From: Minisyncoccota bacterium
Lineage (GTDB): Bacteria; Patescibacteriota; Minisyncoccia; Minisyncoccales; Minisyncoccaceae
Length of the DNA stretch: 64,000 bases
Direction of reading: 5' to 3'
Assembly (NCBI GenBank): GCA_041663645.1
Contig: JBAYMH010000002.1
Span: 16,515-80,514 of the forward strand
Position numbers and translations under genes: made by a program. The first letter of the stretch is position 1, and each line of letters starts with the position of its first letter. Below are positions 42,397 through 42,662 of the stretch, one piece after another. The notes under the pieces are model-generated. The model searched no databases. It saw nothing but the letters and a program-made list of their open reading frames with translations, and was not told the DNA's origin.

Positions 42397-42662
42397 TGGC
42401 CAGAATCTTGAATCTGGCCAAAATCAACGTTTATTCTGGCCAAAATGCTGGCCAAGTTTTTTTATTTTGGCCAGAAAGATGATTTATTTTGGCCAGAAAG
42501 AGAGCTTGATATAACGTATTTACAAGGAAAGTTAACTCTTGCTGGCCAAAATATGTTGTTTGTCCAGAATAATTTGGCCAGATTTGGCCGGATTCGGTTC
42601 TGGCCAAAATCAACGTTTTAGAACTTTATAAATTTGGCCAGTATTTTTATCCATTCTGGCCA
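42397..42662. repeat. Array of 13 TGGCCA-core motifs (11 perfect, 2 one-off) in about 270 bp of intergenic DNA
   Basis: T(T/C)TGGCCA(A/G)A motifs start at 42397, 42415, 42437, 42449, 42468, 42490, 42543, 42561 (TGTCCA), 42575, 42585 (TGGCCG), 42601, 42635 and 42657. The 20-mer TCTGGCCAAAATCAACGTTT occurs twice (42413, 42599), and ATTTTGGCCAGAAAG occurs twice 22 nt apart. Confidence 0.9.

Follow-up and report, generated by a model that had tools for sequence, protein, structure and literature searches.

A conserved array of asymmetric repeat units as a candidate multi-operator target of the adjacent winged-HTH regulator in a Minisyncoccota bacterium

Introduction

What kind of element is a dense cluster of TGGCCA hexamers that lies between two divergent genes in the 64,000-nucleotide stretch of Minisyncoccota DNA analysed here (hereafter the window), and which protein reads it? 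To our knowledge, next to nothing is known of how genes are regulated in CPR/Patescibacteria, and a literature search found no paper on this array, on the regulator family encoded beside it or on the link between the two. A first, sequence-only reading had taken the hexamers for palindromic sites of a dimeric protein and had proposed an iteron, a centromere or a multi-operator array. We argue here that the array may best be explained, with a probability of roughly 0.6, as a multi-operator pad of the adjacent winged-HTH regulator, which would control the regulator–sigma operon.

Results

The array is built of thirteen asymmetric units

The hexamer TGGCCA was found 20 times in the window, and 11 of these copies fell within positions 42397–42662, where about 0.04 copies are expected in 266 bp. 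Dinucleotide shuffles gave a mean of 8.7 copies per whole 64 kb, and none of 100 shuffles reached 20. The nine other copies are spread over the remaining 63.7 kb, consistent with the sequence-only reading, which had described the hexamer as scarce outside the cluster. Two one-off cores (TGTCCA at 42561 and TGGCCG at 42585) complete a set of 13 sites, whose number and position had been read correctly.

Alignment of the sites showed that all 13, when read on the appropriate strand, have the sequence (T/A)NCTGGCCAA(A). The unit is thus asymmetric, and its palindromic centre incidental. The context given earlier, T(T/C)TGGCCA(A/G)A, referred to real sites but masked this asymmetry. The unit is the 12-mer TTCTGGCCAAAA, present in six forward and seven reverse copies, as follows:

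42394–42665, unstranded: array of 13 asymmetric units, consensus TTCTGG(C/A)CAAAA
42412–42423, 42434–42445, 42446–42457, 42540–42551, 42598–42609 and 42654–42665: forward (F) units
42394–42405, 42465–42476, 42487–42498 and 42558–42569 (TGTCCA variant): reverse (R) units
42572–42583, 42582–42593 (TGGCCG) and 42632–42643: further reverse units
42508–42540, unstranded: non-repeat core that separates the left half of the array from the right half, ATATAACGTATTTACAAGGAAAGTTAACTCTTG in the window

The hexamer cores run 42397R, 42415F, 42437F, 42449F, 42468R and 42490R in the left half, and 42543F, 42561R, 42575R, 42585R, 42601F, 42635R and 42657F in the right half. The spacing is irregular, from 10 to 53 bp, and the 22-nt interval pointed out earlier occurs three times (42415–42437, 42468–42490 and 42635–42657). 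The two longer duplications already reported are real and exact, TCTGGCCAAAATCAACGTTT at 42413 and 42599, and TATTTTGGCCAGA at 42463 and 42485. The non-repeat core reads AACGTATTATCAAC in relatives, aligns and is kept in all eight long-form loci (defined below), and follows the pattern AACGTATT[AT][TA]CAA... across long-form arrays.

Outside the array, the 11-mer TCTGGCCAAAA was found in the window at up to one mismatch at a single intragenic site (7586). Two open reading frames that cross the array (42431–42613 on the minus strand and 42445–42621 on the plus strand) are simply the repeats translated, as had been noted for the one on the minus strand. The stretch beside the array, at 42220–42390, is AT-rich.

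Position, spacing and unit sequence are conserved in relatives

In loci whose HTH protein is 56–71% identical to that of the window, the same order was found: Ham1, ClpB, a 125-aa membrane protein, the array, the HTH gene, the ECF sigma gene, a membrane protein gene and a giant surface protein gene. In L001/L007, L003 and L005/L008 the array occupies the same place and its spacing is almost unchanged, the spacings 18, 22, 12, 19–20, 22, 53, 18, 14, 10 and 16 being kept nearly intact at HTH protein identities of 61–71%. The conservation in relatives that the sequence-only reading had proposed to look for is therefore present at the level of both position and spacing. The intergenic DNA around the array is unalignable between these relatives, save for the HTH promoter, which is the most conserved block of the alignment. 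The window has a GIY-YIG endonuclease gene (41080–41364) flanked by ClpB and the membrane protein gene, and L003 has a 72% identical copy (7713–7994) that separates the sigma gene from the membrane protein gene. This gene looks mobile and homing-endonuclease-like.

In L004/L009 and L010–L012, each unit carries TGGACA or TGTCCA in place of TGGCCA. The use of TGGACA at every unit in whole lineages rules out the palindrome and a TGGCCA methylase as the functional entity, and the idea of a palindrome read by a symmetric dimer falls with it. An MscI/BalI-type restriction or methylation target was rejected on the same grounds, as was the specific methyltransferase suggested earlier: relatives do not keep the hexamer, and it shows no avoidance in the window, where nine copies lie outside the array against the shuffle mean for the whole window. 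The whole-array switch to TGGACA is a concerted change of recognition sequence and not a frozen repeat.

A scan of one genome per species returned 41 loci, including that of the cultivated Minisyncoccus archaeiphilus. At about 45 Paceibacteria loci, 4–16 units of the form (A/T)AT-NN-GG(A/C)CA were found, always adjoining the regulator and ECF sigma gene pair. The unit is written in different dialects according to lineage (CTGGCCA, CTGGACA, GTGGACA, GCGGACA, CCGGCCA and TAGGACA), and these dialects (CT-, GT-, GC-, CC- and TA-GGACA) follow the clades of the winged-HTH protein, with GG-CA constant throughout. This match between dialects and clades could reflect plain shared phylogeny. The loci take two forms:

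Long form: regulator of 262–286 aa; array upstream of the regulator gene, 8–13 units in mixed orientation, median gap 15–20 bp
Short form: regulator of 196–224 aa; array between the regulator stop and the sigma start, 4–16 units, nearly all direct

In the short-form arrays the median gap is 10–12 bp, and spacings of 9 + 12 = 21 bp are common. The linkage between array and gene pair thus persists even where the array has moved from the upstream to the downstream side of the regulator gene, among the approximately 45 loci. As a separate observation, 3–5 extra array units were found within the sigma ORF of short-form loci, at +248 to +310, in L013, L014, L017–L029 and L046 (encoding NP[AV][NI]LDN...). 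At these units the rare CTGGAC encodes 28 of 30 Leu-Asp pairs, compared with about 2% expected from codon usage. Such units are absent from the window and from the other long-form loci.

The window contains other dispersed repeats, such as a 25-bp perfect palindrome, GAGGTCCGACCTGAGGTCGGACCTC, with seven copies (8391, 30794, 42740, 50346, 51400, 55521 and 55533), of which the one at 42740–42764 is a window-specific insertion missing from the orthologous regions of relatives. It could thus be asked whether the array is itself a non-functional repeat expansion or a decayed mobile repeat. We consider this extremely improbable, as position, spacing and unit sequence are kept across deep divergence while the flanks are unalignable, and as the 64 kb contain essentially a single occurrence of the unit, namely this cluster. 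The latter result also sets aside a generic dispersed repeat. The earlier view of the array as a candidate multi-site target for a DNA-binding protein is supported.

The array adjoins a regulator, an ECF sigma factor and a surface-protein cassette

The following features flank the array:

41986–42204, minus strand: small basic ORF that points away from the array, its own promoter lying at 42293–42266 (minus strand)
42858–42886, plus strand: near-consensus sigma-70-type promoter of the HTH gene (TTGACT, 17 nt, TATATT)
42884–42895, minus strand: degenerate copy of the unit in reverse orientation, lying between the −10 element and the start codon of the HTH gene, ATTGTCTTTAAT
42896–43720, plus strand: gene of the candidate array reader, a winged-HTH regulator of 274 aa
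43883–44401, plus strand: ECF sigma factor gene, invariable downstream partner of the HTH gene (Pfam Sigma70_r2 and Sigma70_r4_2)
44451–44476, plus strand: ECF-type promoter TGTAACA-N15-CGTC, preceding the gene for the membrane protein
44501–45238, plus strand: single-pass membrane protein gene, conserved by synteny
45998–50005, plus strand: giant surface protein gene, 1335 aa, with PG_binding_1, conserved last member of the cassette

The products of the two genes that flank the array had been put forward as candidate binders. The HTH protein is supported by its linkage to arrays at about 45 loci. The small basic protein is not conserved: tblastn gave no match in any locus compared, and no Pfam or NCBIfam match was found. 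Pairwise comparison gave E = 5e-4 with an ORF of L003 and no alignment with an ORF of L004. Being absent from the conserved system of relatives, it was rejected as the array reader.

The promoter layout of the HTH gene is shared by L046 and other loci. The ATG lies 9 nt past the −10 element and no Shine-Dalgarno sequence precedes it, so that the regulator mRNA is probably leaderless. Both promoters flanking the array face away from it; the array lies upstream of both and is thus probably not transcribed in the window. It is located 190–500 bp from the HTH promoter, which is far for a simple operator and counts against the regulator as its reader. In many loci, a single reverse unit is also found between the −10 element and the regulator ATG, and a reverse GG(A/C)CA unit lies 6–10 bp before the regulator start in L003, L008, L009, L020, L025, L028 and L029. 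At the position of 42884–42895 relatives have a perfect unit, ATATTGTCCTTAAT, whereas the window copy reads GACA and not GGACA. This unit is a candidate autoregulatory operator.

The product of 43883–44401 is called sigma70-ECF by NCBIfam. Its probable target motif, TGTAACA-N15-CGTC, has one match in the window compared with 0.03 expected. In 36 of the first 47 loci one copy comes immediately after the sigma gene, and additional copies occur where genes have been inserted. No copy was found upstream of the sigma gene itself or in the array. Since this conserved ECF promoter differs from the array unit, the array as an ECF sigma promoter, and the sigma factor as its reader, were rejected. The membrane protein encoded at 44501–45238, which has no Pfam or NCBIfam match, occupies the place of an anti-sigma factor and, from its position, may act as one. 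A paralogue of the giant surface protein (48% identity, 52050–55454) is encoded 2 kb downstream of the first copy.

The regulator joins a four-helix bundle to a C-terminal winged HTH

AF2 modelled the regulator as a four-helix bundle (residues 1–117), a disordered linker (119–202) and a C-terminal winged HTH (205–274), with pLDDT above 87 in both domains. The Pfam profile HTH_11 scored 24.4 bits, just under its cut-off of 25, and HTH_DeoR scored 19.1 bits against a cut-off of 21. As HTH_DeoR stays below its cut-off and the DeoRC sensor domain is absent, membership of the DeoR family was rejected; the HTH is, moreover, C-terminal. A search of the sequence against the PDB gave nothing significant. 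By Foldseek (best E-value 2.5e-3), the N-terminal bundle resembles 2gsc and 2rld of the 23S-rRNA-IVS or 'S23' family, each of which appears with several chains in the list of fold matches (A–E for 2gsc), and a weak Pfam match to bAvd fits this likeness. The C-terminal domain resembles MecI, BlaI, ArsR, AspA and TubR. The sub-threshold HTH scores and the modest Foldseek E-value weigh against the regulator as array reader. The regulator belongs to an unnamed family of 1143 clusters at E ≤ 1e-10, with homologues from Candidatus Paceibacterota.

Across the dialects, the motif R-x-x-R-R-(E/D) of the recognition helix is constant, as is GG-CA of the unit. No residue-level covariation was found that links the recognition helix to the C/A position of the core: the helix is identical in L005 (TGGCCA) and L004 (TGGACA), which also counts against the regulator as reader. 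Loci with TGGCCA arrays have a GGACA unit at the promoter, and the C/A position therefore appears to be tolerated. The case for the regulator rests on adjacency and co-phylogeny, with which another factor that tracks the lineages would be equally compatible.

The array is distinct from the chromosomal origin and from known centromeres

A canonical oriC region was found elsewhere in the window, at 18661–22431:

18661–19005, minus strand: rnpA
19586–20965: dnaA
21283–22431: dnaN
19418–19526 and 20988–21206: TTATCCACA or TTGTCCACA boxes

The GC-skew minimum and the switch in gene strand lie near 19 kb, at dnaA/dnaN, and the array is 23 kb away. No TTATCCACA at up to one mismatch was found in 42205–42895, the matches being clustered at 19418–21206 or scattered elsewhere, and the array unit agrees with the DnaA box at six of nine positions and misses its CACA end. 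With a canonical oriC at 19.0–21.3 kb and so poor a match to the box, the array as oriC or as a DnaA-box cluster was rejected. A PrgI-family protein and a VirB4/TraG-type ATPase, both type IV secretion-like, are also encoded near oriC, at 11020–14093.

Short units repeated many times, next to the AT-rich stretch, could still suggest a mobile element, integrated or ancestral, with the array as its iteron-type origin or its plasmid-style centromere (parC or tubC type), and the winged-HTH fold of the regulator also matches the centromere binders AspA and TubR. We regard this explanation, which had been proposed among others in the sequence-only reading, as very improbable. The neighbours of the array are a membrane protein, the small ORF, the HTH regulator and the ECF sigma factor, with no rep gene, and a rep-iteron origin was rejected; GC skew and gene orientation place the origin with dnaA and dnaN. 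Pfam scans of the array-flanking and oriC-proximal genes detected no ParA, ParB, TubZ or ParM gene, in agreement with the earlier remark that no rep or par gene is adjacent, and a plasmid-type centromere was rejected because no partner NTPase gene was found near the array. The parS sequence TGTTNCACGTGAAACA is absent from the window (best match with three mismatches, at 8814) and from all regulator-bearing loci. In addition, the array is part of a chromosomal block whose synteny is stable throughout a bacterial class, and the conserved partner in it is a sigma factor.

Similar arrays lie in tRNA/parS islands

A metagenome scan with three tandem TCTGGACA units as query returned 120 stretches. 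About 11 of these are additional loci with the regulator–sigma pair, recovered by a scan that was blind to the regulator. Among the other stretches that were inspected, coding repeats without relation to the array form the majority. In at least eight distinct contigs, however, an intergenic array follows the same grammar, with the 30-mer TTCTGGACATTCTGGACACGRTTCTGGACA among its sequences, and no regulator gene was detected in the retrieved stretch of these contigs. Six of the arrays lie between tRNA-Val and tRNA-Pro, two others are without tRNA-Val, and all are flanked by 3–6 perfect parS sites (TGTTTCACGTGAAACA). This class (L054, L062, L072/L092, L087, L107, L111, L122, L152 and L153) consists of TTCTGGACA arrays of 8–10 units, some of them TGTGGATA, and NusA, the CCA-adding enzyme, a NUDIX protein and PlsY are encoded nearby. 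A second protein search, of the 433,938-bp contig of L072, found no regulator, and no array of this class could be tied to a genome that carries one.

These results imply that the array reader either acts at a distance or at several sites, or is another protein; a reader encoded at a distance is possible. According to this alternative, the array would be read by a protein encoded elsewhere and would serve as a chromosome landmark (nucleoid organisation, or coupling to segregation or replication near the origin), and the regulator–sigma pair would be a mere neighbour or one target of several. The arrays of the same grammar within parS clusters between tRNA genes are consistent with such a role, as are the distance of 23 kb between the cassette and dnaA in the window and the location of the M. 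archaeiphilus cassette at 27–40 kb of its chromosome record, these being record coordinates and not a distance from the origin. Some lineages mix in TGTGGACAA or TGTGGATA units, which are one mismatch from a DnaA box. In addition, perfect TTATCCACA sequences were found approximately 30–230 bp past the stop codon of three distant regulator homologues that have no adjacent sigma gene (22–33% identity; L041 6807, L044 6764, L045 6901 and 6990). However, the window unit fits the DnaA box poorly while the oriC boxes of the same genome are canonical, the dialect of the motif changes between lineages, parS is missing from the window and all regulator-bearing loci, and the regulator stays adjacent at about 45 loci despite relocation of the array. 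We thus hold a landmark read by a distantly encoded protein to be unlikely.

The array could also work as RNA, through hairpins of inverted units or through a leader or spacer transcript with repeats that pairs with antisense RNA from the tRNA-spacer arrays. Inverted units can indeed pair and terminator-like hairpins are present; the short-form array lies in a spacer that is probably co-transcribed between the regulator and sigma genes, and the extra units in the sigma ORF are held by rare codons. The tRNA-spacer arrays are oppositely oriented relative to their transcription and have the 30-mer in common with regulator-linked arrays. Against this, an Rfam search of the array gave no match above chance, and RNAalifold on eight orthologous arrays (300 columns) yielded −15 kcal/mol and a penalty of +2.35 for covariation; its helices pair only motif with motif and are broken in 2–3 of the 8 sequences. 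Together with the irregular spacing, these data led us to reject a known RNA or a CRISPR array. Orientation content varies by lineage (mixed or all direct), the window array is upstream of both flanking promoters, and spacer variants differ systematically between regulator-linked and tRNA-island loci (CGG vs CGA). A function as RNA is thus, in our opinion, highly unlikely.

Discussion

The small ORF, the ECF sigma factor and DnaA fail as readers, and the HTH protein therefore remains the candidate reader of the array. If the array is its multi-operator pad, the 42896–43720 protein would oligomerise through its N-terminal four-helix bundle, and flexible linkers, each about 85 residues long, would tether several winged-HTH domains to the oligomer, with every domain reading one TTCTGG(C/A)CAAAA unit with its invariant GG-CA core. 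Occupancy of the 13 units, and of the weak unit over the transcription start, would then set the output of the 42858–42886 promoter and hence the level of the regulator–ECF sigma operon, whether by repression or by activation. The sigma factor would in turn fire the TGTAACA-N15-CGTC promoter at 44451–44476, before the membrane protein gene, and the giant surface protein gene follows in the cassette. A flexible linker, as proposed here, may explain why mixed orientation and irregular spacing are tolerated and why a longer linker goes with a looser array.

Tandem winged-helix operators are known from the Pho boxes (PhoB/PhoP) and from the direct-repeat operators of the DeoR family (AgaR, GlpR, SugR). 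The array resembles them in its asymmetric multi-copy units, spaced at ~10–12 bp (one helical turn) or 21–22 bp, in the winged-helix candidate reader encoded alongside, and possibly in a unit over the regulator's own promoter, which is perfect in relatives but degenerate in the window. It differs in having up to 13–16 units and, in the window, in having units in both orientations and at a distance upstream of the promoter. Unlike PhoB and the DeoR proteins, the regulator lacks a receiver or sugar-sensor domain and has instead a 23S-rRNA-IVS/bAvd bundle and a long disordered linker.

Plasmid centromere arrays (TubR–tubC, AspA, ParR–parC and omega heptads), which are bound by small winged-HTH or RHH proteins, likewise consist of direct or inverted units of 7–12 bp, and the DNA-binding fold of the regulator matches AspA and TubR. 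By analogy, a cooperative, multi-copy protein coat on the array is plausible. In contrast to these centromeres, the array locus has no partition NTPase, is chromosomal and class-wide, and is partnered by an ECF sigma cassette. Clusters of DnaA boxes outside oriC, such as datA in E. coli and the DBCs in B. subtilis, share with the array dense asymmetric 9–12-mers in both orientations, tens of kb from oriC, and the units of some lineages reach eight of nine DnaA-box matches. The six matches and the missing CACA end of the window unit, the canonical DnaA boxes of the genome and the drift of the motif between lineages set the array apart from them. Finally, as in ECF sigma/anti-sigma modules, the sigma gene is followed by a membrane protein gene behind a bipartite TGTAACA/CGTC promoter, but here the promoter comes after the sigma gene, and the winged-HTH regulator and the array take the upstream position usual for autoregulation.

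The resemblance of the N-terminal bundle to bAvd and 23S-rRNA-IVS proteins could be carried further. The arrays may be docking platforms, both at the cassette and in the parS/tRNA islands, for a pentameric hub of this type with several winged HTHs on long tethers, the islands contributing arrays with DnaA-box-like units. Such a hub would couple the status of replication or segregation to the expression of envelope and host-attachment genes in episymbiotic CPR bacteria. We consider this extension of the multi-operator reading quite unlikely as it stands; if it were true, it would represent a previously unrecognised class of multivalent DNA binders that build a large nucleoprotein complex. Linker length in relation to array geometry, together with the arrays in parS clusters, suggests an unusual multivalent binding mode.

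The analysis pairs a precise cis-element with a large unnamed protein family of 1143 clusters, and it provides the promoter motif of the sigma factor itself. The proposed circuit would have three tiers and would end in a giant cell-surface protein, a putative host-contact factor. As the cultivated parasite Minisyncoccus archaeiphilus has an orthologous locus (PMX.108, NZ_AP038758.1, regulator gene at about 33.3 kb), this circuit can be tested there.
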